Of a DNA stretch of 64,000 nucleotides, positions 11,066 through 60,063 are shown one piece after another. A model generated the notes under the pieces. That model saw only the letters and a list, made by a program, of their open reading frames with translations. It was not told the DNA's origin and did not search any database. A program made the translations under genes and the position numbers. This DNA comes from Botryllus schlosseri (lineage: Eukaryota). Each line of letters starts with the position of its first letter. Within the stretch, counting starts at the first letter, position 1. Where the stretch lies: NCBI GenBank assembly GCA_051294905.1, contig CM119371.1, positions 5,582,001 to 5,646,000 on the forward strand. The letters are read 5' to 3'.

Positions 11066-11085
11066 CTATCAACACTTACGGAGAA

Positions 11086-11284
11086 TCGCGTTCATACTGG
11101 CCATAATTTCCCGCGAATTTACCGAAAAAACGACCTGTATGAACATAAGTTCGCGGTAACTCTAAATAGGTATGAACGCGCACTTTTCTCGGGACTGTTT
11201 CGGTAATTTTTTCTCTATGTGAACATCGCCTGTTTCGGAACTTGTTCCCGAAAGAGTTTCGTAAATCCGGTATGAAAAGGGCCT
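11086..11284. mobile_element. PIF/Harbinger-like MITE interrupting the LINE
   Basis: Right end ccggtatgaaaagggcct next to tta; left end cgcgttcatactgg; repeated gtatgaa motifs. The left TIR is imperfect. Confidence 0.5.
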
Positions 11285-11731
11285 TAGTTAGGTTGCTATT
11301 GGGTGGGGGTAAGTAGATATTTCCCTTTGACGAGGATCTCGTGTAATGGGAATGGACATTTTTTGCAGGTATGAAAAAGTCATCAAACACAGGAGGCAGA
11401 CTATTGGAAAAATATTTGTGAACAACTTTTGATACTTCGAAGCGATATAGCTCATCAACTCGCAAAATTCGATGCTTACGGTAGTAAGGCGATAAATTGG
11501 TACGTAAAGGTACAGATGAGATCAGCCGTATCGCACGGTTTTGCAGGGTTCGAATTCTGCACAGAAATGTTTTGCATGCACTTCCCCATACTACGATTCC
11601 ATATTGCAGGTGAGAGTGGAAAAGAGAAAAATATATGGTTCGTAGTATTGATCTGGAAACCAAAGATTGCAGACGGGTCATTATTCCCACACACCGAGCT
11701 AGTTTTGATATTGTGCATTCAATATGCTGCT
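11285..11731 (-). pseudogene. CR1/L2-like LINE ORF2, post-RT segment
   Basis: QHIECTISKLARCVGIM...LRTIYFSLFHSHLQYGIVVWG...LQNRAIRLI...HSHYTRS is typical of CR1/L2-group ORF2 C-termini. Confidence 0.9.
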
Positions 11732-12123
11732 CGGGACCTATCATTTGGAATGCATTACCACCACATATCCGTGAATTGCCTTATGATAGATTCAAAAAAG
11801 CCCTTCTTGATCACCTCTTATCGTTACACTAACACTGTTGCCCTACCTCGCCCAGACATTGCTTCATTGATCATTTGCTACCATCGTTTAATTTTTCTTC
11901 TATTTTATTTTTTTAACTACTGTAACTTTTTTTACAGCCAAACTGTTTAGAGTCAAGTGTACCTGTTTGATGCTGGTGTGATCAGACTAGATGACCCTCA
12001 CGGTCTTATCGATCATTCCTATCTAATACCGAATACTGTGCATGCATATTTTCTGTACCACCACCACTGCCGAGTGTTATGTATTTTGGTTTGATGAAAA
12101 ATAAAGACTCTCTCTCTCTCTCT
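11732..12123 (+). mobile_element. LINE 3' end (ORF2 last ~30 codons, 3' UTR, (CT)n tail) lying antisense inside the LINE ORF2
   Basis: SGPIIWNALPPHIRELPYDRFKKALLDHLL*, then UTR and tail; flanked by ctgct at 11727-11731 and 12124-12128. Confidence 0.85.
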
Positions 12124-15100: not shown

Positions 15101-16970
15101 AGAAGAAACTCATCTTCAACTGTGCTGTATCCTTGGCCTTTTGGATATGGTTTGTAAGGTTCATTGTACCACTTGATAACGTGTGGTGTTTCACTTGAAC
15201 ATAGAAATTATAGCATTCAGCAGAGCCAGTGTCCCATAAATCCGGATGCAATCCCTCTACACTCCACTCTGGCTGTGCTATCTCTCAAGACGTCGACTTT
15301 CTTCAATCCATTATAATTGAGAAACGAAACTCCGACAGTACGGAATCATAGCTCAAATCGACACTCACACGAGGAGTTTGACAACATTCAAGGTCTTCAA
15401 ATAATGCAATGCACATTATGCACTAGTTGATGGACCTCCACTCAAGAGATATGACGCATCACTAACGTACTGATCAACACTCCTTGGCGTTGACTTTCAA
15501 ACTGTTTACATGGTCTCTCGTTGAAATCATATGGAAAAGCACCATAATCACGCCAAAGTCTTTTTTCACAATTCTTCAACTGAAATCAAATTTACTTAAA
15601 CAGACCATTGCTTGACAAAAAAACTAACAGCTTTTTCTTGTATGGCTCAGTGGTTCTGGATGATTGATTCCGTCAATCATATTGTAGAAAATATAGCAGC
15701 TGAAGGAAGGGAAGAGTAAGCACTAAGCAGGACAGTTGAGTAGGTTTGCTTTCGTTGTAACGGTATATAGGAATTCTGGATTTTATAGCCTTGTTAGATG
15801 TTATTAGTGTGCCTTAGTATGATATGCATGTATCTTGAATGATTTCAAAGAGGCTGGTAGGCTGCTGTATCGTCAAGGCATCATTATATTAATTATCATA
15901 CATTTTATCTATATATCTTCTTACATAATTTTCCATATAATTATCTGACTCCAGAAAGATACTTGTACATGTTTGTATGCATATTCTTATTTGGTTGACC
16001 GGGCTGCAGGTGTGTGAATAGCTGTTAACTCGATGTGCCAAGCTGACAAGAAGTCCAAGTCCACACTGGGAATACCTTCTCACAGAATGGAGTTATTACA
16101 TTGTTGAACGTCATCAGGATATATTCCGTTATGATCATGAACTGCTGAAAGACTCATGGTAGCCAAAGATTGTGCCATAGCACAAGCACCGCTGTATAGT
16201 GTTGATCGAAAGGGTATCATACAGCTACTGTGGCAGCATGAAAATCATTCATGCAACAAGTACGCAAAGAGGGATTTGACTTACCGCTATATTAATCTAC
16301 AGAAGACTGCCACAACAACAATTTGAGGATTCTAGAAATTGTATGCCCTATTGTGACATTCATCAGCAATGGGTTAAAAAACTACATGTGAAGGCGAGAA
16401 GCAAACGCAGTTTTGTGACTGATGTTGAAACTATACCTTCAATTTTGCGAACTTCAGACACTGCTCTGCGAGAATACCGTACTGATGATAACCATGTCAG
16501 GCGAGCTCATGTCCAATCATACCATCTTTTATCAGTTCACATATTATTTATCGTTAGACTGGCAAGTATGGTATACTTTATGTGTTTTAGCTAATAAATC
16601 TGATAACATGGCTGATCTTATAGTATTGTCTATTCTTGAATGGTTAGAATGGTAGTGGCAATAGTTGATCTATATTACCTTGGACTCTTGACAAACATTT
16701 TTAGACTGCTACCAGTCATATCGCAAGGTGTCAGCTGTCTGTATTTGGTTATTGAATTGATTACTTCTTTCTATAGGCCTGTAATCAAATCTCACATAAG
16801 GTTACAACTATCCGGAAATATCCTATGAAAAGTTACAACTATCCGACAATATCCGAAAAAATATTTGTGATAATATCCGAGTCCTATCCGACTGCCACAA
16901 AATCGTCTAATATCCGGTCCGAATGCCATCCGAGTCCGTCCGGTGCTCATCACTGCTTTGAGTACACTCT
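12160..16970. mobile_element. Foldback/MULE-like non-autonomous element with ~1-kb inverted arms
   Basis: Termini agagtgtactcaaaggtgg / cctttgagtacactct; 9-bp TSD agtgacacc (12151-12159, 16971-16979). Arms 12160-~13290 and ~13500-14373 are inverted copies built of ~185-bp subrepeats (ttcgtatggtatatcttga). Confidence 0.85.
14382..16955. mobile_element. Decayed hAT transposon nested in the foldback right arm
   Basis: TIRs cagtgatgagc / gctcatcactg; perfect 8-bp TSD ctttgagt; atccg subterminal repeats; BED-finger-like and transposase-like remnants inside. Confidence 0.9.
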
Positions 16971-17795
16971 AGTGACACCGAGATATTTTGCTGAGTCACA
17001 TATGGAGATTTGTTTATGATCGATGTTCACAATGTAACTATGATTGGCATTATTTAAAAGGAGCATCTCGGTCTTATCTGCATTCAAGCTTAGTTTGTTT
17101 GCTTGGAGCCATCTCGACACTTTTGGGAGTTCCCTATTCACGGATGCATGCAAATCATTGCCAGTGTTAGAGGTTATGAAGAGGTGAGTATCATCAGCAA
17201 ATAGGGTTGTGCGGAATAAAGATGCATTAACAATGTCATTAATATAAATGAGGAAAAAAGTCGGTCCAAGGACTGAGCCTTGTGGGACTCCACAAGTTAT
17301 ATCTCTGGTAGTCGATCTTAATGTCCCCAGTTTAACAAATTGTTCGCGATTTGCCAGGTAGCTTTCAAGTAGAGTTGCTGCAATACCCCTGATTCCATAG
17401 TGTTCTAGCTTGTATCTTAAGATTCTGTGGTTAACTGTGTCGAAAGCTTTGCGGAGGTCGATAAAAATGCTGCAGCCACTTTTTTTTGCTTGATGGTTTT
17501 GTAATAGTCCGTTACAATTGATAGTATTGCATGGTTGGTGTTGTGGTTTGATCTGAATCCATGCTGGGTAGGAGACAGTACTGCATTCAATTCAAAAAAA
17601 TTTTTGAGTCGGCAGTCAATCAGTTTCTCAAAAACCGTGGCAAGATTTGGCAGAACAGATATCGGTCGGTAGTTAGAAATTAGCTTTTTACAGCCTTTCT
17701 TAAACACTGGCATTACTCTGGCAGTTTTCAGTGCATCTGGGAAAATGCCCAGACGTATCGACTCATTAAAGAAAATGCATATAACATCACCAATA
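16971..17795 (-). pseudogene. CR1/L2-like LINE reverse transcriptase domain (frameshifted, 5'-truncated)
   Basis: PVFKKG, NYRPISVLP, QHGFR, DLRKAFDTVNH, GVPQGSVLGP, FADDT, KYLGVT; continues as GVTIDAKMSWK at 12126-12159. Confidence 0.95.
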
Positions 17796-18227
17796 ATATT
17801 AAAGACTAGCTAGCGTATTGTATTTGGTTGAAATAATACTTGCGATAAATAATAGTTGTCTGTCTTGGACACGTTTTCCGCGACAGATCTGCATAAAATT
17901 GGGTATGGACAGAGTTTTATCATGTGTCAGTGTCCAAATCCGGATACCATATCCGGATACGCCATTGTTTTATCAGTATGGTGATACAACCGTTCATGTT
18001 GTTACATGCCACATTTAGTAGGTACCCTTCGATTTGTGTGATAGAATTTTGTGTGATAACTTCACTTTGGTGAGGGATATAGTCCGCCCACTTTTAAACT
18101 GAAACAGCCCAGATTTAAGTTTTGCTGAGGTCACGGTATGGATTTGAAATGTGATGGTCAGATTTGCGAAAACTGACCCGATTTCAAAAGGGCTCACATT
18201 AAGAAGTGACCCCCATGTTCACCACCA

Positions 18228-23331: not shown

Positions 23332-24039
23332 TAGGGTTGTCCAAAATTTGGAAAATCTCAAAAAGTCTCCGCGATTGTGTCTCATTCTATAGATTATTGA
23401 TAAAAAAAAAAAAAACAATTAGCCTGAAAGAAGCTTACAGGAAAGCCGTTAAGATTTCGGTCAAAGCGTTTGAAAGTAGCTGCTCAAGAATGGGCGTGCC
23501 ACTGACCATAGAACGGCGACGAGACTAGTAATCAAATAACCACGGCTCTTGATTGGCTAATCGGCTATGCTTCAATGACCACGGCAGCAGTAGCTTGCGG
23601 ATTAGATGTTCAAGAAGTCTGCTACCGGCGGGGATTCTGAGTGCGCATTGTTAGTAGTTTGGCAGGTCATGATTTAAGATTAATTCGGGACATGTTGAGG
23701 TACGAAAGACATGATGAACAAACAACACCTGCATCACAGAAGCTTTTACAGCATGACTGCTTCATTGTTAAGGATACGGATAAAGCCTACAATGTCGTGT
23801 TTTCATCGAGAGAAAGCAAAGGCGCTTATGCAATCGTTGAGCGAATTCACCGTTTCAGTACGAATCCACCATCAGTGAATACAAATATATAAAGCTTAAC
23901 AATGATACTATACTTTGACCGAAATCTTAACGGCTTTCCTGTAAGCTTCTTTCAGGCTAATTGTTGTTTTTTATCAATCTATAGAATGAGACACAATCAC
24001 AGAGACTTTTTCAGATTTTCCAAATTTTGGACAACCCTA
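23332..24039. mobile_element. MITE with ~130-bp TIRs
   Basis: tagggttgtccaaaatttggaaaatct / agattttccaaattttggacaacccta; 7-bp TSD tctgcat. Confidence 0.9.
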
Positions 24040-24287
24040 TCTGCATCTTCACCATTTCGGACATGCCTGTGAAAAGTTAAGCATACTAGCAATAGACAAT
24101 AGACATGCATTCATTTCGATAAGTGAGGCTTAAGTCACGAGATGGCAATGCCACCCAGATTCGGGTAGTGGTAATAAACGTCGAAGAACCACTGGTCTCT
24201 AAAAGATTGTCGAACACACTCATCTGTCGGCTAGTGCTATCAGAGCTTGTGTTTAGCGCGACCAAGGCCATGGTGCCTACTCCGAAC

Positions 24288-25578
24288 CAGAATTGAACAA
24301 CTAGAAAATTTTAAGCTTTTTGAATTAGATTAGAATTAGAGCTATACAGTCCTTTCCAAATTAGATTAGAATTATAATTAGAGTTACACATCTTTTTCCA
24401 AACTAGATGAGAATTATAACTAGAGCTAGACAAGTTTTCCAAATTAGATTATAATTAGAATTAGAGCTACACAGCTTTTTCCAAATTAGATTAGAATTAG
24501 AATCACTGAATTCGCAAAAGAAAATTATGAATGGAAAGTGAATACAGCCATTCACAATGCATTCCCATAACCATGAGAATGATGGTTACGTCCGTACACC
24601 AAGCTTGGCTCGTTTGGTACCATACCAGGGGTCACCGCGATCGCGGCAGGCGATCTTATTTGTGAATTTGGAAGAACGCGAAATAAAGCATTTTGAAATG
24701 CTAAACTTGTTTAAGTTTTAAATTATTGTGGGTATTTCAAAATAAGCTATTCGCCTGTGCCCAACAACACTAATCCACACTAGATGAAACGGCTTCGGCG
24801 ATGGCAACAGCATTCCACCGATGGGGAGTCAGCTGATATCAATAAGCACATTGCCTAGAAGTGCAATGACTCAGACACGACCGAGACCAAGACGATTAGA
24901 AAACGGCATAGGACCGTCCCCACAAGATCAATCTTTAGGATGAGATAGTCTTTCAGCTAGTAACATGGCTGGCTAGTCGCAAGTTCGTTTCATCAGTCGC
25001 GGTGAAGCGTTGTCGGGTATCGTGCGCAGCTCATAGTTCAGAATAAAGTGACGTTCATGATCATGATATTTCTTGCATTTGTACTACTTAATAATACATT
25101 GCTTCTTTTGTGGTACAGTAACCATGAGCATTGCACATGTTTGTCAGCACGGCGCTGTATACTAATGTAAAGTTTTAAAGACTGGAATGTTGTTCATTGA
25201 CTACAAGCTACTATCCTAGCAGGCTATTATTCGTCACAATAACTGCTATGACTTACGGTGCAAGTAACGCGGATGGCGAGTTGGCATTGGATTTCCCTGC
25301 GCGAGAGGGATATTCTTGTTAATTCGCTGCAAAATGCCTCGGACAAAGAGGCATTTTCAGGAAAACAATAAATTAGATTAGAATTACAACTAGAGCAGAG
25401 GGGTATTTCACGAATTAGATTAGAATTAGAAATAGAGCATAAAACATTTCACAAATTAGATTAGAATTAGAATTAGAGCATAGAATCATTTTATAAATTA
25501 GATTAAAATTAGATTACTTGCATTTCGCTCTAATTTAGTGAAATTAGACAACTAGAATTATCTAGTTGTCCAAGTCTG
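24288..25578. mobile_element. hAT-type MITE with aattagattagaattaga subterminal arrays
   Basis: Termini cagaattgaacaactag / ctagttgtccaagtctg; perfect 8-bp TSD ctccgaac. Confidence 0.9.
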
Positions 25579-25933
25579 CTCCGAACCAGATACTCGTCCC
25601 TAATCGCCTGGTTGAACCGGGCTGATGGTATCACACTTGTTCTAGAATTGTTCCGAATCTAATATTCAGTGATCCCGGGGATTTGTTGAAGACACAGTCA
25701 ATTAGCAGTTTATTGTCTCGGAACTGAAATCTTTCGGACAATCAAGTTGAGACCTGAACGTCCCAAATCTTCTACCCGCAGCCAATATCCGAATCTGAAA
25801 TGTGATTGTGATCTACAAATGTATGTGCGGAACATCTGTAAGGAACTACTCGTCTGAATTGTCAGGTTGCCGATCATCACAATGGCTACGCTGATAATGT
25901 TGAAAATGATGATTTTCATGTTACATGAGACAT

Positions 25934-26408
25934 TGTTAAACTGTTGTATATATTGTACATATTGTGTATTCGTTGTATACTGTACTAGTGTTTGGAATAT
26001 TCTGGAACTTTGTTAGCTAACCGCTGGTCTCCCTGCAGGAGTGTGAATGACTCATATTGAAAGTGTTCTGGTTTCTCGTGTACGTTCGAGTTAATGTTTT
26101 GATACTCGGGTATAATTGGTTTGATTCTGGGTTACCTCGTGGTAGTACGATACGTCGCTCGCTGTATGAACAGGTCTGCTGTAATATACTCTGCTGTGTG
26201 TGTTGGACTGATGTCTGTCAAGTGTAAGAAATAGGGAATCTCAAGCCGTAGGTAGAACGGAGTAGATCCTGAATTTCATCAAAGGTTATGGGCCCAGCAC
26301 GCTTCCGCTGCGCCACTCTGCTGTGTGTGTTGGACTGATGTCTGTCAAGTGTAAGAAATAGGGAATCTCAAGCCGTAGGTAGAACGGAGTAGATCCTGAA
26401 TTTCATCA
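25934..26408 (+). mobile_element. Copia-like LTR, captured tRNA-iMet half and duplicated LTR 3' end
   Basis: TG...CA unit (25934-26281) with a second copy at ~50210-50504; followed by ggttatgggcccag (copia-type PBS). 26315-26408 repeats 26188-26281. The LTR start and TSD (gacat/gataa) are uncertain. Confidence 0.8.
26284..26322 (-). tRNA. 5' half (nt 1-39) of initiator tRNA-Met; a captured fragment, not a full tRNA gene
   Basis: Reverse complement is AGCAGAGTGGCGCAGCGGAAGCGTGCTGGGCCCATAACC, the conserved animal tRNA-iMet 5' half including the CAT anticodon. The 3' half is absent. Confidence 0.92.
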
Positions 26409-26619
26409 GATAATTGTACTAAACTGGTATTATTAGGTCATAAGTTTGTTGTTCTTGGATATTGTTATTTATCAAACTGTTCCGTTTTTGCTTATTTTTT
26501 CCGTTTTTCAGACTGGGCTGCCATAATATCAGCTTGGTTGAATACTTGTTTTTAAGTAGAGAGCGGTTGATGTGTGATGCTTGAAGAAGTTTAAAGTAAC
26601 ATACAGATAATCCAGAAGA

Positions 26620-28059
26620 ATGACAAACATGTGCTGGATCTGTGGAAAGAGCTTCCATCGTAAGGGCGGATTGAAAGCTCACTTGCGATTCCACCTTATA
26701 AATAGAAATACCGAATGTGAGATCTGCGGAAAAACCTTTGCTGCAATCAGTTTATTGAAAAAACATTTACTATCCCACACTTTTTTGAAAAATCATGAAC
26801 ACAGGGGCATTGGCAAAGAGTATAATCAGATTCTTCACTTGAAAAGACATGCGGATACACGTACTGCTCACCTTGGAGTCAAAAACCACGACTGTGAGAT
26901 CTGTGGAAAATCATTTGTGCGGGTTGGCGACCTGAAAACGCATGTAAATATACATACTGGAAGCAAAAACTTTTCATGTCAGATCTGCGGGCAAACGTTT
27001 ACCCGGTTTGGTCACTTGAAAACACATGGACATACACATACTGGAGTAAAAAACTATGCATGTCAGATTTGCGGAAAAGCGTTTACCCATATTCGTGACT
27101 TGAAACGACATGAAAATACACATACTGGAGTCAAAAACTATGCATGTCAGATTTGCGGAAAAGCATTTACCCATATTCGTGACTTGAAACGACATGAAAA
27201 TACACATACTGGAGTCAGAAACTATGCATGTCAGATCTGCGGAAAAGCGTTTACTCAGCTTGGTAACTTGAAACGACATGAGAATACACATACTGGAGTC
27301 AAAAACTATGCATGTCAGATTTGCGGAAAAGCATTTACCCATATTCGTGACTTGAAACGACATGAAAATACACATACTGGAGTCAGAAACTATGCATGTC
27401 AGATCTGCGGAAAAGCGTTTACCCAGCTGGGTGCCTTGAAAATACATGAAAATACACATACTGGAGTCAGAAACTATGCATGTCAGATCTGCGGAAAAGC
27501 GTTTACTCAGCTTGGTAACTTGAAACGACATGAGAATACACATACTGGAGTCAAAAACTATGCATGTCAGATCTGCGGAAAAGCGTTTACCCATCTTGGT
27601 GCCTTGAAAATACATGGAAATACACATACTGGAGTCAAAAATTATGAGTGTCAGATTTGCGGAAAAGCGTTTACCCATCTTGGTGCCTTGAAACGACATG
27701 AAAATACACATACTGGAGTCAAAAACTATGCATGTCAGATTTGCGGAAAAGCATTTACCCATATTCGTGACTTGAAACGACATGAAAATACACATACTGG
27801 AGTCAGAAACTATGCATGTCAGATCTGCGGAAAAGCGTTTACCCAGCTGGGTGCCTTGAAAATACATGGAAATACACATACTGGAGTCAAAAACTATGAG
27901 TGTCAGATCTGTGGTAAAGCGTTTAGTCTGCTCAGTAACTTGAGAACGCATGTGCATACACATACCGGAGTCAAAAATTTTGAGTGCCAGACGTGCGGAA
28001 AAGCGTTTACCCTGCTTGGTAACTTGAAAAGACATGGAAATACACATACAGCAGAATAG
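26620..28059 (+). CDS. Tandem C2H2 zinc-finger protein (16 intact fingers plus 1 degenerate); possibly the last exon of a longer gene
   Basis: Uninterrupted 479-aa ORF of CxxCGKxF...H...H repeats with TGV(K/R)NY linkers. Confidence 0.92.
   Translation: MTNMCWICGKSFHRKGGLKAHLRFHLINRNTECEICGKTFAAISLLKKHLLSHTFLKNHEHRGIGKEYNQILHLKRHADTRTAHLGVKNHDCEICGKSFVRVGDLKTHVNIHTGSKNFSCQICGQTFTRFGHLKTHGHTHTGVKNYACQICGKAFTHIRDLKRHENTHTGVKNYACQICGKAFTHIRDLKRHENTHTGVRNYACQICGKAFTQLGNLKRHENTHTGVKNYACQICGKAFTHIRDLKRHENTHTGVRNYACQICGKAFTQLGALKIHENTHTGVRNYACQICGKAFTQLGNLKRHENTHTGVKNYACQICGKAFTHLGALKIHGNTHTGVKNYECQICGKAFTHLGALKRHENTHTGVKNYACQICGKAFTHIRDLKRHENTHTGVRNYACQICGKAFTQLGALKIHGNTHTGVKNYECQICGKAFSLLSNLRTHVHTHTGVKNFECQTCGKAFTLLGNLKRHGNTHTAE
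27061..27900 (+). repeat. Coding minisatellite: ten near-identical 84-bp zinc-finger units
   Basis: tgtcagat(t/c)tgcggaaaagc(g/a)tttac...cacatactggagtca(a/g)aaactatgca repeated with a period of 84 bp. Confidence 0.95.
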
Positions 28060-29139
28060 CGGAATGCATATCTTTTTCTTCTCGCGATGATGATCTCGAA
28101 CATGAAGCAGTAATATTGACAGGAATACCTTATACTAAAATAATGCTGTTACTTAGAGTAGACGTTCATTCACTCTGCTATCATGTCAATACGATTTAAT
28201 ATTGCGATCAAATCTGTCAGAGTACTCAACGCATATATCTTTGAATCACCTTTCCGGCTAAATGATTACTGTGCCGGCTGTCCAGAAATTGTGGTGGACT
28301 TGTATCTTCGTGTTACTAAGACTCTTGCCCATTTCCATTTGTCGTTGCCACAATAAAAATTTCTCTATACGTTGTTTTTTATCATCTATTTTTTTCAGTT
28401 TGAACATGTTTCTCCCATTTTCATATTTTAATCACGGTGTATGATTACTGCCTGAAAATTTTTTTCTCACTGCCTTAATCAGTTTCAATAAAGACTGCTT
28501 TTGCGGTAATTTGCGCTGGGTTCGTTGTTTAGAGAAGTTTGATGTGGATATTCAAATCTTTGTATCACGGTGTGATGAGCTAATACTATAGTTTATGTCA
28601 CCTAAATTTTAAGCTTCGTGTACATTATCCTTTGTCATATTGTCTGTTTATTAGCAGTCCGTGCATATCGTTTACACTTTCGTTTCAAATTGTAATGTTG
28701 TGGCCATTCTGTAAATATGTGTTTCTCCTTGCCATCCATTTCATGCAATTTGTCGACATTTTCACTTCTTCAATCCTCATGAGATTTCAATTCGTTCATA
28801 AAAACGGTTAATCATGGAGCTACAATAAGAAGCTCCTTATAGTCTAATATAAGATATGATGTTCTACCAGCTTTTTGGTAGTAGACGTGAAATGATACCC
28901 GTACGATTTGTGATGCAGGTGATTAGCACATCATTGATCGCTATCCTTTGTGATGATGTGATTATAAACAGTCATCCGCAACAAATATTATTTTTATTCT
29001 GTTTCGTTTTGAAATCTATTGAATATCTGATAAATTCTGTGTGTATTTCTGATATACACTCGCTGCATCTTGTCAACAATTTCGTTCCTTCATGAGATTT
29101 TGTTTCATTCAGACTATTTGTAATTCATAGTGCTACAAC

Positions 29140-50169: not shown

Positions 50170-50504
50170 TGTTACTGACGGCTGACAGACTCTAGAATAT
50201 TTTTTTGGAATACTTTGGAATATCCTGGAACTTTGATAGCTAACCACTAGTCTCCCTGCATGAGTGAGAATGACTCATATTGATAGTGTTCTGGTTTCTC
50301 GTGTACGTTCGAGTTAATGTTTTGATACTCGGGTATAATTGGTTTGATTCTGAGTTACCTCGTGGTAGTACGATACGTCGCTCGCTGTATGAACAGGTCC
50401 GCTGTAATATACTCTGCTGTGTGTGTTGGACTGGTGTCTGTCAAGTGTAAGAAATAGGGAATCTCAAGCCGTAGGTAGAACGGAGTAGATCCTGAATTTC
50501 ATCA
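50170..50504 (+). mobile_element. Solo LTR of the Copia-like family at 25934
   Basis: ~290 bp nearly identical to 25990-26281 and ending tttcatca, with no PBS after it. The 5' boundary is uncertain. Confidence 0.8.
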
Positions 50505-52087: not shown

Positions 52088-52311
52088 ATCTGATAGTATA
52101 CATAAGGTATATCTTACGCCAATTTTGAATCCACATTCCAGTTGTTTAGTCTTTTACATTGCTGACAAACTTCCCCAAACTTGTTTGAAAATACCAAAAA
52201 ACATTGAAAAGGACATCAGTTAATTTTAAGGTAGGTTGCACTGAGACTAATCCTGATGCTGGTAGTGACTACAGAGAGCACGGCGTCGTTCTGTCCTGCC
52301 ATGCTAAATTT

Positions 52312-55083
52312 TGTAGCGTACCGCTCATTGATTACTCAATTGCCCCGATTGATCATTCTAATTACCCTCGCTCTATCACTGATTATGCCTCTATACTCGT
52401 TGCTGTTGCCAACCTATGTGGCAGTCGGCATTTAGTCACCGTCGGAGGTGCAGTCGGCTTTTAGTCACCGTCGGAGGTGCTGTCGCTTTTAGTAACCGTC
52501 CGAAGAACATCGCCGCCGTTGTTTCAAGTTGCTTTTAATAAAAGAGTTACGCTAACGTGTCAAAGTTATTTACACCGAGCCGCGGACCCAGAAGAACGCG
52601 CGCCCACGACAGAGCACGCTATATTTTGGTGACCCCGACGTGATTTCGCTTTTAAACGTGATAGCCGACGTGATCTTTTTGGAAATGCAACGCGGTAGAC
52701 GGGACAACTGTAATGCCGCAAGATAAAACAGGATCAACGATGGAAAGCGATGAACTCACGGAACGCATAAACGAGATTTGCCCTGGCTACATAGGAATCG
52801 TTAGTTTGTGTTCATTGATGCGGGATTTCAACGACATGGAATTCGGACCTTTCCACACGTAGGCCTACTTGCTTCGGTACGACGCTTCAACTCGGCGCCA
52901 CTCAACGCGAATTGAACTGCTGAGCGAGCGGGATTGCTTCGATTGCTTCAGTGTCGGTTAAATTTTGATTGGGTAGGCTACGCCATACCGCTGATAGAAG
53001 ACTCCAGAACAACTCCAATCTGCATGCAGAAGACTTCACCAAGTACAACTTCTTTCATCGATTGCAGACTTGCATGTTTGCAGCACGACGATGACATGAT
53101 CGAGCCTTAGCACAGCGACTACGTACACTGAATTCTCTTCGCAACTTCATATCCGCGATCGCCCGACACCGATATACTCGCTTTTCTACGTAGATATAGA
53201 AGCAGCTATGCTGTCTCACTACGCATTCCAACTGTAGAACGAAAGATGAGCCGAACGAAACTCTACACAACCGACGGAACCATTATTCATGATGGGACCA
53301 TGAACCGAATCGAATCACCTCGACATTGACAGAAACAGCGGAAATGCGCTCAAACGCAGATCCCCCCTTCATTCACTCTTGTCGAGCGACGACTTGCAAC
53401 TAACCTATCAACTTGATAGGTATATTCCGAATGAAAACGCTCTTCGTCTCAGTATTATGTGGCAGACGCTTCCGACTTTCTATTTTACATTACCCGCTCA
53501 CGCATCCGAGAATCTACTAGACTTCCCACGGACCTTAACGACACGACTTGCGAAATATGGAGCGCGACAGAGTTAATTCGTGCAACGTCAACGTGCTGGT
53601 CCAATAACGCTCGAAGTGCAATCGAAATGTAGGGATTCTCTTGATCCATTGCCAGTGTACTTGTCGAACAATTCCGCTCCGTGATGTTAATAGACGTTCC
53701 CCTAGCAATATCTGCATATTCATTCATTTGTTTAATGTGCGTATTGACCGTTTTTCAGTCGACTCTAATGAATTCTTATCGTTATTTTACGCCATCAGTC
53801 ACGACTAGACGTTACATATCCCGAAACTGTTGTAAGGTTGATCATCACGTGATATGATATTACTAACTTCGATTTATGTTAGCGAATTATGACGTCATCT
53901 CTTACGCCCAAAAGCTTTCGCAGCCCATACCTACTTGCGTACCATATAGGATTAGACAACGCTTGTAGTCACACAATTCTAAAGTATCTCACTCAACCGT
54001 TACTCGATCAACTATACTTTTTCGCCATCGAAGGTCTGTAATGTGCATGGCACTTGAATGTGTTTACTCTCCATTTAGTGAATACCTCTTCTAGTATTAT
54101 TCACTATTCACTCCGATGGTATCGGCTACGCTAGTAAATCCAAACGCTCTTTCTCTGGGTTGCGCAGATTCCAGATGACTTTAATTCGAATTCAAAATCA
54201 CACTTCGAATTCAAAATCCCACGTCCCAAACGATAATTACGCACGCACACGTGTTTTTGAAATGATAATCACACTGTACATCACTCGATCCAGTTTGTTC
54301 TGTCCACGTCAAGTTTTGATCCGCACTGAAATGTTTTTCACAATTCGAACGATTACCTGTCCGCATGACGTCTCAACCAATTGGCTTTGAATATGCCAGT
54401 GGCCGTATTATTCGTACCCCACGATTTTGTGTTGTCACCAGTATTTGAAATGTATATTTATTGTGATACTCGTTCACTTTTCCGTCATCACTTATATTAG
54501 TTTCGCCGCAAGCTTATTCACCTCTCTGTATGTCATATAAAGCGTGCCGCAATTGTAATGTCTATTTATCGCTTAACATTATTTTGTCGTTCATGTCTTT
54601 ACCACCGTACCCACCCCACTTTCGTTCGCCGTTGAACCATTAGAGTTGTACTAAGTATTCTATCTTAGTCTGTAATCCCTACCGTGTCATGCTGATTGAG
54701 TCCGTCACTTAGTAGTTAAATCGTTGTCTCTAGTTTCTATAATATCCTAAAGCTTTTACCAACCAGGGGGGCCCTTGTAGCGTACCGCTCATTGATTACT
54801 CAATTGCCCCGATTGATCATTCTAATTACCCTCGCTCTATCACTGATTATGCCTCTATACTCGTTGCTGTTGCCAACCTATGTGGCAGTCGGCATTTAGT
54901 CACCGTCGGAGGTGCAGTCGGCTTTTAGTCACCGTCGGAGGTGCTGTCGCTTTTAGTAACCGTCCGAAGAACATCGCCGTCGTGTTTTAGTTGTTTTAGT
55001 AAAAGAGTAATGCTGACGTGTTTACTATGTCTTACCGAGCCGCGGACCCAGAAGAACGCGCGCCCACGACAGAGCACGCTATA
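52312..55083 (+). mobile_element. Non-autonomous Gypsy-like LTR retroelement
   Basis: LTRs 52312-52623 and 54776-55083 (tgtagcgt...acgctata), 4-bp TSD attt, PBS after the 5' LTR, G-rich tract before the 3' LTR. The ~2.15-kb interior has no long ORF. Confidence 0.92.
52627..52644 (+). promoter_or_regulatory. Primer-binding site complementary to the tRNA-Trp 3' end
   Basis: tggtgaccccgacgtgat is the reverse complement of ATCACGTCGGGGTCACCA. Confidence 0.85.
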
Positions 55084-58101: not shown

Positions 58102-59478
58102 TTAATGATTTCTCGGACCAGCATGTATATCCATATGGAGCTTGAAGCTACCATTATGTGTAAATACTTTCCCACACACATCACACTCAAGCCTGATGCC
58201 AGCATGGATATCCATATGACTCTTAAGGTTACCCTTCTGGAAAAATGCTTTCCCACATACATCACACTTGTGATTTTTGATACCAGCATGTCTATTATAA
58301 TGAAGCCTTAGAGAACTCCTCTCTGTAAATGATTTCCCGCATACATCACATTTATGATTTTTTAATCCAACATGCATATCCATATGAGAATTAAGGTGAC
58401 TCTTCTTGGTAAATGCTCTTCCACATATATCACAAATATGATTTTTGATGGCAGCATGTATATCCATATGACTCTTGACGCTACCTTTCTGGGAAAATGC
58501 ATTCCCACATACATCACATTTATGATTAAAACAAGCATGTTCAATAGAATGAGCCTTGAGAGAGCTCTTCTGTGTATATGCTTTCCCACATATATCACAT
58601 GTATGATTTTTGATATCAGCATGTATATCAGAATGAACGTTAAGAGAACTCTTCTGTGTAAATGCTTTTCCACATATATCACATGCATAATTTTTGAGAT
58701 CAGCATGTATATAAGAATGAAACCTGAGATGACTCTTTTGTGTAAATGATTTCCCACATACCTCACATTTATGATTTTTAATTCCGCCATGCATATCAAC
58801 ATGGCACTTGAGGTCACTCTTCTTGGTAAATGCCTTTCCGCATATATCACAAACATGTTTTTTGATACCAACATGTACATCCATATGATCCTTGAGGTTA
58901 CCTTTCCGGGAAAATGCTTTCCCACATACATAACATTTATGATTTTTGAATCCAACATGCATATCCATATGAGAATTAAGGTCAGTCTTCTTAGTAAATG
59001 CTTTTCCACATATATCACAAACATGATTTTTGATACCAACATGTACATCCATATGACTCTTGAGGCTAACTTTCCGGAAAAATGCTTTCCCACATACATC
59101 ACATATAAATTTTTTGACGCCAATGTGTGTATTTGTATGGATCTGGAGGTTACACTTCCGAGCAAAGGCTTTTCCGCATATATCACATTCATGCTTTTTG
59201 ACGCCAGCATGCTTATCAGCATGACATTTGAGCTTCTTCATAAGGGTAAATGTCTTTCCACATATATCACATTCATTATTTTCGATTCCAGTATGCACAT
59301 GTGTATGAATGTTGACGTTGTTGTTGCGAGAAACCGTATTCTTGTAGATATCGGGTCGACCAGCTTTCGCTTTGTAGTCAATACCTATTTTATTTGACTC
59401 CATTTTCTCCTTTTTGAGAGAATGCTCTTCACACTTCCACAGAACGCTTTGCTTTATGACAGTGGAAAAAACATTCAA
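58102..59478 (-). CDS. Tandem C2H2 zinc-finger protein (14 fingers; a 15th lies beyond the stop); true start uncertain
   Basis: 458-aa ORF of CD(I/V)CGKAF...H...H repeats with (V/A)G(I/L)KNH linkers. The listed start is a TTG, and a probable splice acceptor lies near 59527. Confidence 0.85.
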   Translation of the reverse strand: MNVFSTVIKQSVLWKCEEHSLKKEKMESNKIGIDYKAKAGRPDIYKNTVSRNNNVNIHTHVHTGIENNECDICGKTFTLMKKLKCHADKHAGVKKHECDICGKAFARKCNLQIHTNTHIGVKKFICDVCGKAFFRKVSLKSHMDVHVGIKNHVCDICGKAFTKKTDLNSHMDMHVGFKNHKCYVCGKAFSRKGNLKDHMDVHVGIKKHVCDICGKAFTKKSDLKCHVDMHGGIKNHKCEVCGKSFTQKSHLRFHSYIHADLKNYACDICGKAFTQKSSLNVHSDIHADIKNHTCDICGKAYTQKSSLKAHSIEHACFNHKCDVCGNAFSQKGSVKSHMDIHAAIKNHICDICGRAFTKKSHLNSHMDMHVGLKNHKCDVCGKSFTERSSLRLHYNRHAGIKNHKCDVCGKAFFQKGNLKSHMDIHAGIRLECDVCGKVFTHNGSFKLHMDIHAGPRNH

Positions 59479-60063
59479 GAAATGATCTTCAAGATCGAAC
59501 TGCCTGGGACTACTTTAAGCAGATTCTAAAAAAAATTTGCAAACTGCATTAAGGACATAAAGCTCAAAATGACAATATGACCACAGCGCACATCTGATAT
59601 GTATGAAATAGTGGAAGTAAACTATACTTGCGCATATGATAAGTGACCAGCGATGGTTATGCTTTACTCTTAGATGTCATTTTGTTTCTCGATGTCACTG
59701 TTGAACAACCATGACATAACGATCGCTAATAATTATACACCCAACGGCATTGTGTCTAATTGACTGTAGATAGATAGCAGACAAAGCTTGTGATGCCAGT
59801 GACGCGATAGTTCGGGCCGGCGAGGATGTCTTGCGCACGGGGCCCATTAAAAATGCGATTGCTGAGGCCAGCGATTATATCGTGCGCACCAGGCCAGCTG
59901 GAGAGGCGGCTGTAGTGTTTAGGCCAGCTTTTCTCAACCGCTGTGCCGCGGCACACTAGTGTGCCATTTATGTCTCGCAAGTGTGCCGCGAGCTATTTAA
60001 TCGGAATTTTGAAATTATTCGCAAGACAATTCTAATCTATAGAAAACTGTCAATAATCTAAAT

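Follow-up and report, generated by a model that had tools for sequence, protein, structure and literature searches.

The zinc-finger gene and its surroundings

The window, by which is meant the whole 64,000-nucleotide stretch of Botryllus schlosseri DNA that was analysed, carries a gene for a poly-zinc-finger protein. The features of the gene and of its flanks are given in Table 1. Translation of the 479-codon open reading frame gives 16 C2H2 fingers with the pattern C-x2-C-x12-H-x3-H; both Cys and both His are kept in all 16, and the frame is open throughout. The fingers are joined by the linker TGVKNY, whereas the canonical C2H2 linker is TGEKPY.

Table 1. Positions in the window of the zinc-finger gene, its parts and its flanking features.
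Feature	Position	Strand	Remarks
Conserved upstream block, putative promoter and non-coding first exon	25576..25898	+	CCAAT at 25782-25786; possible splice donor CAG/GT at 25865/25866
510-bp insertion, solo-LTR-like copy of a dispersed repeat	25899..26408	+	Flanking direct repeat GATAAT; internal duplication of ~113 bp
Pyrimidine-rich stretch, putative 3' end of a 5'-UTR intron or trans-splice acceptor	26409..26511	+	Ends acceptor-like, tttttcag/ACTGGG; conserved in paralogues
Putative 5' UTR	26512..26619	+	In-frame TAA at 26608-26610, directly before the ATG
Coding sequence	26620..28059	+	479 codons and TAG; 16 C2H2 fingers and one degenerate finger; no other domain
N-terminal module, conserved	26620..27039	+	Fingers 1-2, degenerate finger lacking the Cys pair, fingers 3-4
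Middle array, fast-changing	27040..27879	+	Ten finger cassettes of 84 bp, nearly identical, in the order A' A B A C B D E A C'
C-terminal part, conserved	27880..28056	+	Two fingers (LLSNLRT, LLGNLKR) and the family C-terminal end ...HGNTHTAE
Candidate polyadenylation signal	28352..28357	+	First AATAAA 3' of the stop; second AATAAA at 28487-28492

Pfam recognises zinc-finger families alone in the open reading frame, with zf-C2H2 found in 16 stretches (E 2e-93). KRAB, SCAN and ZAD have no match there, and the conserved N-terminus consists of fingers only. The best relatives of solved structure are DNA-bound arrays, these being ZNF568 (5v3m, E 4.6e-72), Aart, CTCF, and the fingers of PRDM9. We infer from the sequence that the protein is a sequence-specific DNA binder with no recognisable effector domain.

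Close relatives were not found among public proteins, where both the whole protein and residues 1-118 retrieved generic poly-ZNF proteins at ~52% identity or less. An exhaustive representative search with residues 1-118 had long multi-finger proteins of 30-44% identity as all of its best 150 matches, behind which a closer single-stretch relative could be hidden. Exact look-ups of the window protein, nine of its paralogues, and one conserved neighbour protein gave no match. The ESM Atlas offered generic ZNF clusters only, without useful taxa, and a literature search for ascidian C2H2 expansions found nothing specific. Among the sequencing runs listed for the stretch, 20 match part of it (shares of 0.15-0.59), and none is recorded as an RNA run containing it.

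The conserved upstream block lies just upstream of the ATG region in seven of the eight compared paralogue loci, with 82-99% identity, while the match in the eighth (L018) is limited to 25757-25814. Its last ~120 bases are nearly invariant in the alignment, distant paralogues included. The 510-bp insertion is absent from the compared paralogues, where the bases corresponding to 25898 and 26409 are directly joined. The dispersed repeat to which it belongs has 43 DNA matches in the genome (the window copy counted), on many contigs and at 84-100% identity, several of them being same-strand pairs 2.7-4.3 kb apart.

A clustered family of paralogues

A six-frame search of the genome itself gave 164 matches, the best of which fall into two clusters of the contig that carries the window, one at 4.1-6.5 Mb and one at 21.9-22.15 Mb. 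The window gene is one of at least 30 clustered paralogues on this contig. At the 30 loci examined the architecture is the same: a middle array built of one-finger cassettes of 84 bp lies between conserved fingers at the N-terminus and two conserved fingers at the C-terminus. The family is large, clustered, and lineage-specific, with the birth-and-death evolution of the KZNF and FiNZ type.

For each N-terminal finger there are 0-5 differences from the positional counterparts in paralogues, and for each C-terminal finger there are 2-5. The three closest paralogues (L011, L012, and L013) are 96-99% identical to the window gene in the upstream block, 97-98% in the N-terminal fingers (88-89% for distant paralogues), 93-98% in the C-terminal fingers, and 96-97% in the 3' flank.

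Structure of the ten-unit array

The array of ten consecutive, nearly identical fingers that had been reported from the sequence was found again, both by repeat finding and by translation. Tandem Repeats Finder identifies one array, at 26874-28049, with a period of 84, 14.0 copies, 86% matches, no indels, and a score of 1561. The original prediction had placed the ten units at 27061-27900. They are indeed ten in-frame units of 84 bp, but in the register from linker to His they occupy the span given in Table 1, a shift of 21 bases. Fingers 5 to 14 carry the helices HIRDLKR, HIRDLKR, QLGNLKR, HIRDLKR, QLGALKI, QLGNLKR, HLGALKI, HLGALKR, HIRDLKR, and QLGALKI, which matches exactly the order A A B A C B D E A C that had been read.

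Any two of the ten units are separated by 0-11 differences in 84 bases, 7.2 on average. Four of the 45 pairs are identical and 23 have at least 90% identity; across all 16 fingers it is again 23 pairs, out of 120, that reach 90%. Within the ten units, 18 of the 84 columns vary. Most of the differences between cassettes are in the helix, at -1, +1, +2, +3, and +6. Of these, the variation at -1 (H/Q), +2 (R/G), +3 (D/N/A), and +6 (R/I) had been listed, but that list omitted other variable residues: +1 (I/L), K/R in the linker, A/E before the first Cys, and E/G after the first His.

The backbone had been described as homogenised. This holds to the extent that 19 of the 28 third-codon positions are invariant, but the homogenisation is less than was implied, with a backbone pS of 0.18 and cassettes drawn from a family-wide pool. 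A backbone pS of 0.18-0.29 indicates that the cassettes are old lineages rather than freshly homogenised copies. Silent markers private to each helix type (columns 30, 42, 48, and 75) show that whole units have been copied, rather than contact codons having mutated on a fixed backbone. A block of two units at 27292 is found again at 27712, the copies differing at 1 of 168 bases.

Cassette A (HIRDLKR) is present in four copies, three of them identical. Among the 29 loci of the finger census it is private to the window gene, and it is one base from the HLRDLKR cassette of L013. Units D and E had been thought to be recombinants of the other types, which holds only in part. Four gametes are seen in 10 of the 45 informative column pairs. 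However, the nearest relative of D is an HLGALKI unit of a paralogue (2 differences, against 3 for the nearest unit in its own array), and E is isolated, with no close relative (4-7 differences).

Identical units raise the question of the assembly, in which the ten units could have been put together in the wrong number or order. Three identical units and exact repeats within the array of up to 166 bp are of the kind that could cause such an error. This is nevertheless very improbable, since the frame is intact through every unit, the same architecture recurs at about 30 independent loci, and the array is only 1.2 kb, with repeats of at most 166 bp that are presumably short beside long reads.

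Turnover of the array between paralogues

The gene and its three closest paralogues differ greatly in the number of fingers, with 16 in the window gene, 30 in L011, 21 in L012, and 27 in L013. Middle units of the window gene with a collinear counterpart (3 or fewer differences) number 2 of 10 in L011, 3 of 10 in L012, and 2 of 10 in L013. The rapid restructuring that had been proposed is thus supported by flanks and end fingers that are 96-99% identical while only 2-3 of the 10 middle units are collinear, as measured on paralogues rather than on individuals. Near-identical flanks around so few collinear units indicate that the arrays restructure much faster than their bases change.

In the middle array, whole cassettes and blocks of two cassettes are copied, lost, and exchanged in register. 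The likely mechanism is unequal exchange among the 84-bp units or gene conversion, operating inside an array and perhaps also from one paralogue to another. Shuffling of a shared finger library in this way would re-program a long DNA-binding surface.

Variation at DNA-contact positions

Diversity was expected to be concentrated at the DNA-contact positions, with an excess of non-synonymous change, and it is. For the ten units, pN/pS is 3.4-3.9 at the contact positions (-1, +2, +3, and +6) and 0.12-0.15 in the backbone, values that rest on about 18 variable columns in units that are recombining and not independent, and that relaxed constraint and cassette shuffling could have inflated. The same direction is seen at two other scales. 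A young subclade, formed by the window gene and the paralogues at 4.66, 5.00, and 5.42 Mb of the contig, has a pN/pS of 1.60 at contact positions and 0.26 in the backbone (6 N/0 S against 4 N/8 S, Fisher's test, p = 0.013). The 477 fingers of 29 loci have 1.29 and 0.41, and the entropy at their contact positions is 2.3-3.0 bits. Of the amino-acid diversity, a share of 0.58 falls at the four contact positions, compared to 0.24 in an unrelated ZNF gene at 58 kb. Diversifying selection appears to have acted on the contact residues, with the Cys, His, and hydrophobic core residues retained.

Not all members of the family are intact. Only 7 of the 30 loci have a single open reading frame that spans the whole distance between the conserved start and the conserved C-terminus, and the frame is split in two of the three closest paralogues, so that the family includes decaying copies. 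The window gene could be on the same path of decay as its broken relatives. It would then be a decaying or neutrally drifting copy with an unstable coding minisatellite, and its contact diversity would be a legacy of functional ancestors or paralogues, passed on by gene conversion. The many broken members are in keeping with this, as are the young solo-LTR-like element in the conserved upstream region and the dN/dS of the N-terminal module, which has a median of 0.45, reaches 0.8-1.1 in some pairs, and is 0.33-0.87 against the closest paralogues on very few changes. However, the window gene has an open frame of 479 codons and intact Cys and His pairs, the backbone is constrained within the array itself, a private cassette has been amplified to four copies without the frame being broken, and the insertion is in an apparent intron or promoter, outside the coding sequence. 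Decay is therefore an unlikely account of this copy.

The family might instead be one of ordinary young transcription factors that regulate host genes, the arrays having diverged by sub-functionalisation after duplication rather than through conflict with repeats. CTCF, one of the solved relatives, is an example of an ordinary regulator that is a poly-ZNF protein lacking accessory domains, and the present evidence contains no tie of the family to transposable elements (TEs). Against this, contact pN/pS is above 1 at all three scales, the interior turnover is extreme between copies with flanks that differ by 1-4%, and the family has birth-and-death dynamics with many broken copies, all of which is atypical where the targets of a regulator are conserved. 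A family of this ordinary sort is likewise improbable.

The stretch is probably best seen as the variable central part of an intact poly-C2H2 gene that has one coding exon and belongs to a lineage-specific family with at least 30 paralogues on one contig.

Comparison with PRDM9

The array had been called PRDM9-like, and there are clear similarities. As in PRDM9, going by the consulted sections of Oliver et al. 2009 (PMC2779102), the gene has a single-exon 84-bp C2H2 array of identical or nearly identical fingers, contact diversity at -1, +3, and +6, changes in unit number, and conserved edge fingers around a fast-changing interior. The contact diversity share is inside the range of 0.29-1.0 given for full-length PRDM9 in the part of the preprint 10.64898/2026.09.07.749791 used here.

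These features of a coding minisatellite could suggest a PRDM9-like recombination factor that marks meiotic hotspots with its array, with the methyltransferase coming from a partner or from an exon that has escaped notice. The absence of a nearby KRAB or PR/SET exon, noted from the start, was borne out: neither domain, nor SSXRD, is found in the open reading frame or in the 82 ORFs of 35 aa or more that lie on the same strand from 17.8 to 30.4 kb, which match 0 Pfam families. Genome scans for PF01352 and PF09514 had 0 matches, in runs that had no positive control. An in-frame stop is present right before the ATG in the window gene and in each of the nine paralogue loci L002-L010, where the stop-to-stop frame opens 9-12 bases (3-4 codons) ahead of the Met, and PRDM9 is one or a few genes rather than dozens of paralogues.

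The contig does carry PR-domain exons, which lie at 5.92 and 6.25 Mb, inside the span of the ZNF cluster. However, the nearest is about 275 kb from the gene, and no finger array is found within 7-8 kb downstream of them (two 8-kb pieces). The C16 PR-domain gene has fingers of a different backbone with GEKP linkers. A search with the PR-exon protein gave one weak match, and no sequence link was found between the fingers of the family and the PR-domain genes of the genome. Derivation of the family from a local PRDM9-like gene was considered and rejected for lack of support, the PR-domain exons on the contig having no array and the C16 fingers being different.

Identity between the units is high, with at least 90% in 23 of the 45 ten-unit pairs, but lower than in mouse PRDM9, for which the consulted sections of Oliver et al. 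(PMC2779102) put all pairs above 90%. For tunicate Prdm9 fingers, the same sections report that no concerted evolution or positive selection was found, a result that counts against the PRDM9-like reading in a tunicate genome. The truncated cnidarian PRDM9 paralogues, as covered in the part of the preprint 10.64898/2026.09.07.749791 used here, resemble the family in the birth-and-death of variable finger arrays outside vertebrates, but they retain PR/SET by definition, and the window family has none.

The window gene is not a PRDM9 orthologue, and the label holds as an analogy only. Recombination targeting, which had been offered as one possible function, is unlikely for a gene that has no PR/SET and many paralogues rather than being single-copy, and the specific reading of a hotspot-marking factor is scarcely credible. 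What stands of the original interpretation is the coding minisatellite, its contact-position diversity, and its fast restructuring, and not the comparison with PRDM9 beyond analogy.

Comparison with TE-targeting zinc-finger families

The KRAB-ZNF clusters of tetrapods are similar in being large, clustered, lineage-specific families that grow by segmental duplication and contain many pseudogenes. They also gain and lose fingers and have a replacement excess at contact residues, and the closest solved chain is that of ZNF568 (PDB 5v3m). They differ in having KRAB, for which there was no match in the open reading frame, in the neighbourhood, or in the genome scan, the last lacking a positive control. 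Both DNA identity between fingers and re-use of cassettes are higher here than is usual for KZNFs.

The FiNZ-ZNF genes of cyprinid fish, as described in the portion of Wells et al. 2023 (PMC10547256) consulted, are proposed as a non-KRAB analogue of TE-repressing ZNFs. They share with the window family a lineage-specific expansion, a conserved family-specific N-terminus, and positively selected fingers. The lineage differs, and the conserved N-terminus here is made of fingers (two and one degenerate) instead of a separate domain. The same portion of that paper links ZNF diversification to TEs across metazoans, independent of the accessory domain.

By analogy with KRAB-ZNF and FiNZ-ZNF, the most likely role of the protein, though at somewhat less than even chance, would be to recognise targets in the genome that evolve quickly, transposons or satellites for example. 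TE surveillance, as had been suggested, is a reasonable guess. A more specific and more doubtful version is that the family is a counterpart of KRAB-ZNF and FiNZ in the sea-squirt lineage that has no separate effector. The fixed N-terminal fingers would then be the effector or partner-binding part, and the middle, re-programmed by shuffling a shared stock of cassettes within and between clustered paralogues, would track fast-evolving repeats, either TEs or the abundant satellite of the genome.

Implications

Rapidly evolving families of tandem zinc fingers are believed to bear the traces of conflict between a genome and its repeats. To our knowledge, functional work on such families is confined to the KRAB-ZNFs of tetrapods and the FiNZ-ZNFs of fish. 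The family described here is very regular in its build, with fixed ends and a cassette-shuffled middle, and several of its copies have diverged recently, so that single events of duplication, deletion, and conversion can be read. It is therefore a convenient natural system for the rate and the steps by which finger arrays are re-programmed.

For PRDM9 research there is a caution, in that minisatellite-like fingers with contact-site diversity do not by themselves mark a PRDM9. The family also makes it possible to ask how a protein made only of fingers exerts its effect. If it is indeed an effector-free counterpart of the KRAB-ZNF and FiNZ families, then minisatellite dynamics of PRDM9 grade would belong to an entire gene family, and not to a single gene.

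The array and its reading frame

Tandem Repeats Finder places a single array in the gene (period 84, 14.0 copies, 86% matches, no indels, score 1561). The sole long frame across it has its first ATG at 26620 and translates to 479 residues with 16 canonical C-x2-C-x12-H-x3-H fingers. Fingers 5 to 14 are the ten consecutive near-identical units of the original prediction. Its coordinates, 27061 to 27900, refer to that array too, starting from the first Cys; the linker-to-His register is used here. Pairs of units differ at 0 to 11 of 84 bases (mean 7.2), with 4 of 45 pairs identical, 23 of 45 at least 90% identical, and 18 of 84 columns variable. The units are real as predicted; only 1 of 91 finger pairs is at least 90% identical in the control gene, the second, unrelated poly-zinc-finger gene of the window.

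Translation reproduces exactly the predicted helix (-1 to +6) order, A A B A C B D E A C, where A is HIRDLKR, B QLGNLKR, C QLGALKI, D HLGALKI, and E HLGALKR. Positions -1, +2, +3, and +6 vary as proposed, but that list was incomplete: +1 (I/L), the linker (K/R), the residue before the first Cys (A/E), and that after the first His (E/G) vary too. Each type of helix has silent markers of its own (columns 30, 42, 48, and 75) and the units have therefore been copied whole, as cassettes.

Coordinates of features in the window (C1) and on contigs C1 and C16 of the same genome
Feature	Position	Strand
Reverse-transcriptase fragments	11076-11780 and 16950-17809	-
Upstream segment 1	23332-24039	
Upstream segment 2	24203-25598	
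42-bp tandem repeats	24324-24503 and 25370-25513	
Conserved upstream block	25576-25898	
CCAAT, within near-invariant ~120 bases of the block	25782-25786	+
510-bp insertion	25899-26408	
Proximal region	26409-26619	
Long reading frame	26611-28059	+
Tandem array	26874-28049	
Ten units, linker-to-His register	27040-27879	
Second copy of the dispersed repeat	50214-50504	
214-bp direct repeats	52311-52524 and 54775-54988	
Control gene	58102-59514	-
Family member L019	C1:4086542-4088002	-
Family member L020	C1:4196645-4198105	+
PR/SET exon copy (L041)	C16:3154831-3157965	
PR/SET exon copy	C16:3.13 Mb	
PR/SET exon copy	C1:5.92 Mb	
PR/SET exon copy	C1:6.25 Mb	

Turnover of the array

The closest paralogues, L011, L012, and L013, are very young relatives of the window gene, with identities of 96-99% in the upstream block, 97-99% in the proximal 5' region, 97-98% in the N-terminal fingers, 93-98% in the C-terminal fingers, and 96-97% in the 3' flank. 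In the window gene, each of the six end fingers is 0 to 5 differences away from its positional counterpart. The paralogues have 30, 21, and 27 fingers, respectively, against 16 in the window gene, and unit-level alignment finds collinear counterparts (3 or fewer differences) for 2, 3, and 2 of the ten middle units, always adjoining the conserved ends. With so few collinear units between near-identical flanks, the interior has been rebuilt while the flanks gained 1-4% substitutions.

Among the 29 loci of the finger census, the A cassette is private to the window gene, where three of its four copies are identical; a single base separates it from the HLRDLKR unit at the equivalent position of L013. 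The two-unit A-C block at 27292 has a second copy at 27712, the two differing at 1 of 168 bases, and the RIGHLKT-type unit is missing from the window array though abundant in all three paralogues. All four gametes are present at 10 of 45 informative column pairs of the ten units, consistent with exchange between cassettes. Cassette D, predicted to be a recombinant, is closer to a unit of L011 (2 differences) than to the nearest unit of its own array (3) and is thus inherited, not newly recombined. The description of the backbone as homogenised is right only in part: backbone pS among distinct cassettes (0.18 in the window, 0.29 in the young subclade of the window gene and its paralogues at C1:4.66, 5.00, and 5.42 Mb) indicates old lineages that have been shuffled, rather than a freshly homogenised array.

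Probable selection at contact positions

Nei-Gojobori counts per codon give pN/pS of 3.4-3.9 for the contact codons (-1, +2, +3, and +6) of the ten units and 0.12-0.15 for the 21 backbone codons, the non-synonymous excess expected from the original prediction. For the young subclade (69 distinct fingers) the values are 1.60 and 0.26, and for 29 loci (420 distinct fingers) they are 1.29 and 0.41. Among the changes in the ten units, all 6 at contact codons are replacements and none is silent; the other codons show 4 replacement and 8 silent changes (Fisher p = 0.013). Median dN/dS across the N-terminal module is 0.45. Of the amino-acid diversity, the four contact positions account for 0.58 in the ten units; other paralogues give 0.26-0.53 and the control gene 0.24, and the range quoted in a preprint for full-length PRDM9 is 0.29-1.0 (10.64898/2026.09.07.749791). 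Drawn from few, non-independent, recombining units, all these figures speak for diversifying selection at the contact residues, short of proof.

Gene structure and upstream region

Pfam identifies only zinc-finger families in the frame; between 17.8 and 30.4 kb, a further 82 + strand ORFs, each 35 aa or longer, match no family. An in-frame TAA lies immediately 5' of the ATG, and each of the nine paralogue loci compared likewise has a stop-to-stop frame that begins just 3-4 codons ahead of the Met. The most likely start is 26620, for a protein that would end ...HGNTHTAE and thus be essentially all fingers.

Upstream, the conserved block joins the proximal region directly in seven of eight paralogue loci; the eighth, L018, matches the block in part only. 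The final ~120 bases of the block are nearly invariant, distant paralogues included. The proximal region ends with a pyrimidine tract and tttttcag/ACTGGG at 26511/26512. The layout may be that of a promoter with a non-coding first exon, followed by a short intron (or an acceptor for trans-splicing) and then a 5' UTR of 108 bases.

In the window gene the two conserved parts are split by the 510-bp insertion, which has GATAAT on both sides. It is one of 43 matches, the window's own copy counted, to a repeat dispersed over many contigs at 84-100% identity. As several of these are same-strand pairs 2.7-4.3 kb apart, the insertion looks like a solo LTR. The ~400-bp repeat has two copies in the window, of which this one has an internal duplication of ~113 bp, and the copies elsewhere, which are often paired, resemble LTRs that bound a small element.

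Other repeats are found in the window. Upstream segments 1 and 2, the latter edged by ATTAGA-rich 42-bp tandem repeats, are missing upstream of the more distant paralogues, in which the conserved blocks on either side adjoin, and are probably nested TE insertions. The two stretches of reverse transcriptase, the second with pieces matching RVT_1 at E 1.9e-24 and 7.8e-08, are retrotransposon remains upstream of the gene. The direct repeats, 99% identical, 2464 bp apart, and each containing a 29-bp tandem repeat, lie where the window is richest in GC (0.455) and look like two LTRs or the ends of a small element. The control gene has a 470-aa open frame, a ~70-aa non-finger N-terminus, G(I/V)KNH-type linkers, and an old, divergent array (69% matches by Tandem Repeats Finder).

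The paralogue family

A six-frame search of the 495.5-Mb assembly finds at least 164 matches to the window gene, the best of them on its own contig at 4.1-6.5 Mb, around the window (5.58-5.65 Mb), and at 21.9-22.15 Mb. All 30 loci examined share the start M-T-x-x-M-C-W/S-I-C-G-K, then two fingers and a degenerate finger, followed by two extra anchor fingers in the members nearest the window gene. The middle array takes the totals to 9-30 fingers, and many loci close with two conserved fingers and ...TH(T/A)(V/A)E. An uninterrupted ORF from conserved start to conserved end is present in 7 of the 30; the rest are split or differently ended, so that decaying copies are present in the family. Each position of the linker, T-G-V-K-N-Y, is kept in 359-399 of 477 fingers. 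In public protein collections exact look-ups found no match, and the best relatives are generic poly-zinc-finger proteins at about 52% identity or less. Two 515-aa members, L019 and L020, have nearly identical finger lists and lie in opposite orientation ~110 kb apart: within the cluster, a segment has recently been duplicated in inverted orientation.

Relationship to PRDM9 and other zinc-finger families

According to Oliver et al. 2009 (PMC2779102), no other mouse zinc-finger gene comes near PRDM9 in inter-finger identity. The window gene was originally likened to PRDM9, with the proviso that no KRAB or PR/SET exon was recognised in the window. The proviso stands: PR/SET, KRAB, and SSXRD are absent from the ORF and its 82 + strand neighbours. 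Genome scans for KRAB and SSXRD, run without a positive control, were blank.

The genome has nine matches to PR-domain exons, including an unrelated PRDM-type gene on C9. PRDM9-type PR/SET exons, ending ...EEQNL(V/I)AFQYRGEIYYRSFCDIKPNTEMFVWYG..., are present in four copies. The two C1 copies fall within the span of the zinc-finger cluster, with no finger array up to 7-8 kb downstream. Downstream of one of the two C16 copies (L041), exons of a single finger recur every 353 bp, with a GEKP linker and a backbone unlike the window family, seemingly one exon per finger within a 353-bp tandem unit. Derivation of the window family from these genes was considered and rejected for want of any link, the C1 copies lacking nearby fingers and the C16 fingers being different. 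The window gene is not a member of the PRDM9 family.

Among solved structures, those nearest to it are tandem arrays bound to DNA, namely ZNF568, Aart, CTCF, and PRDM9 fingers. By the way it evolves, the family fits the lineage-specific, clustered, fast-diversifying zinc-finger families that Wells et al. 2023 (PMC10547256) tie to TEs whatever their accessory domain. It differs in having no separate effector domain, in a conserved N-terminus built of fingers with the linker TGVKNY, and in the cassette re-use and identical finger pairs of several members (13 pairs in L014, 9 in L021). The window gene would work as a putative re-programmable DNA binder.
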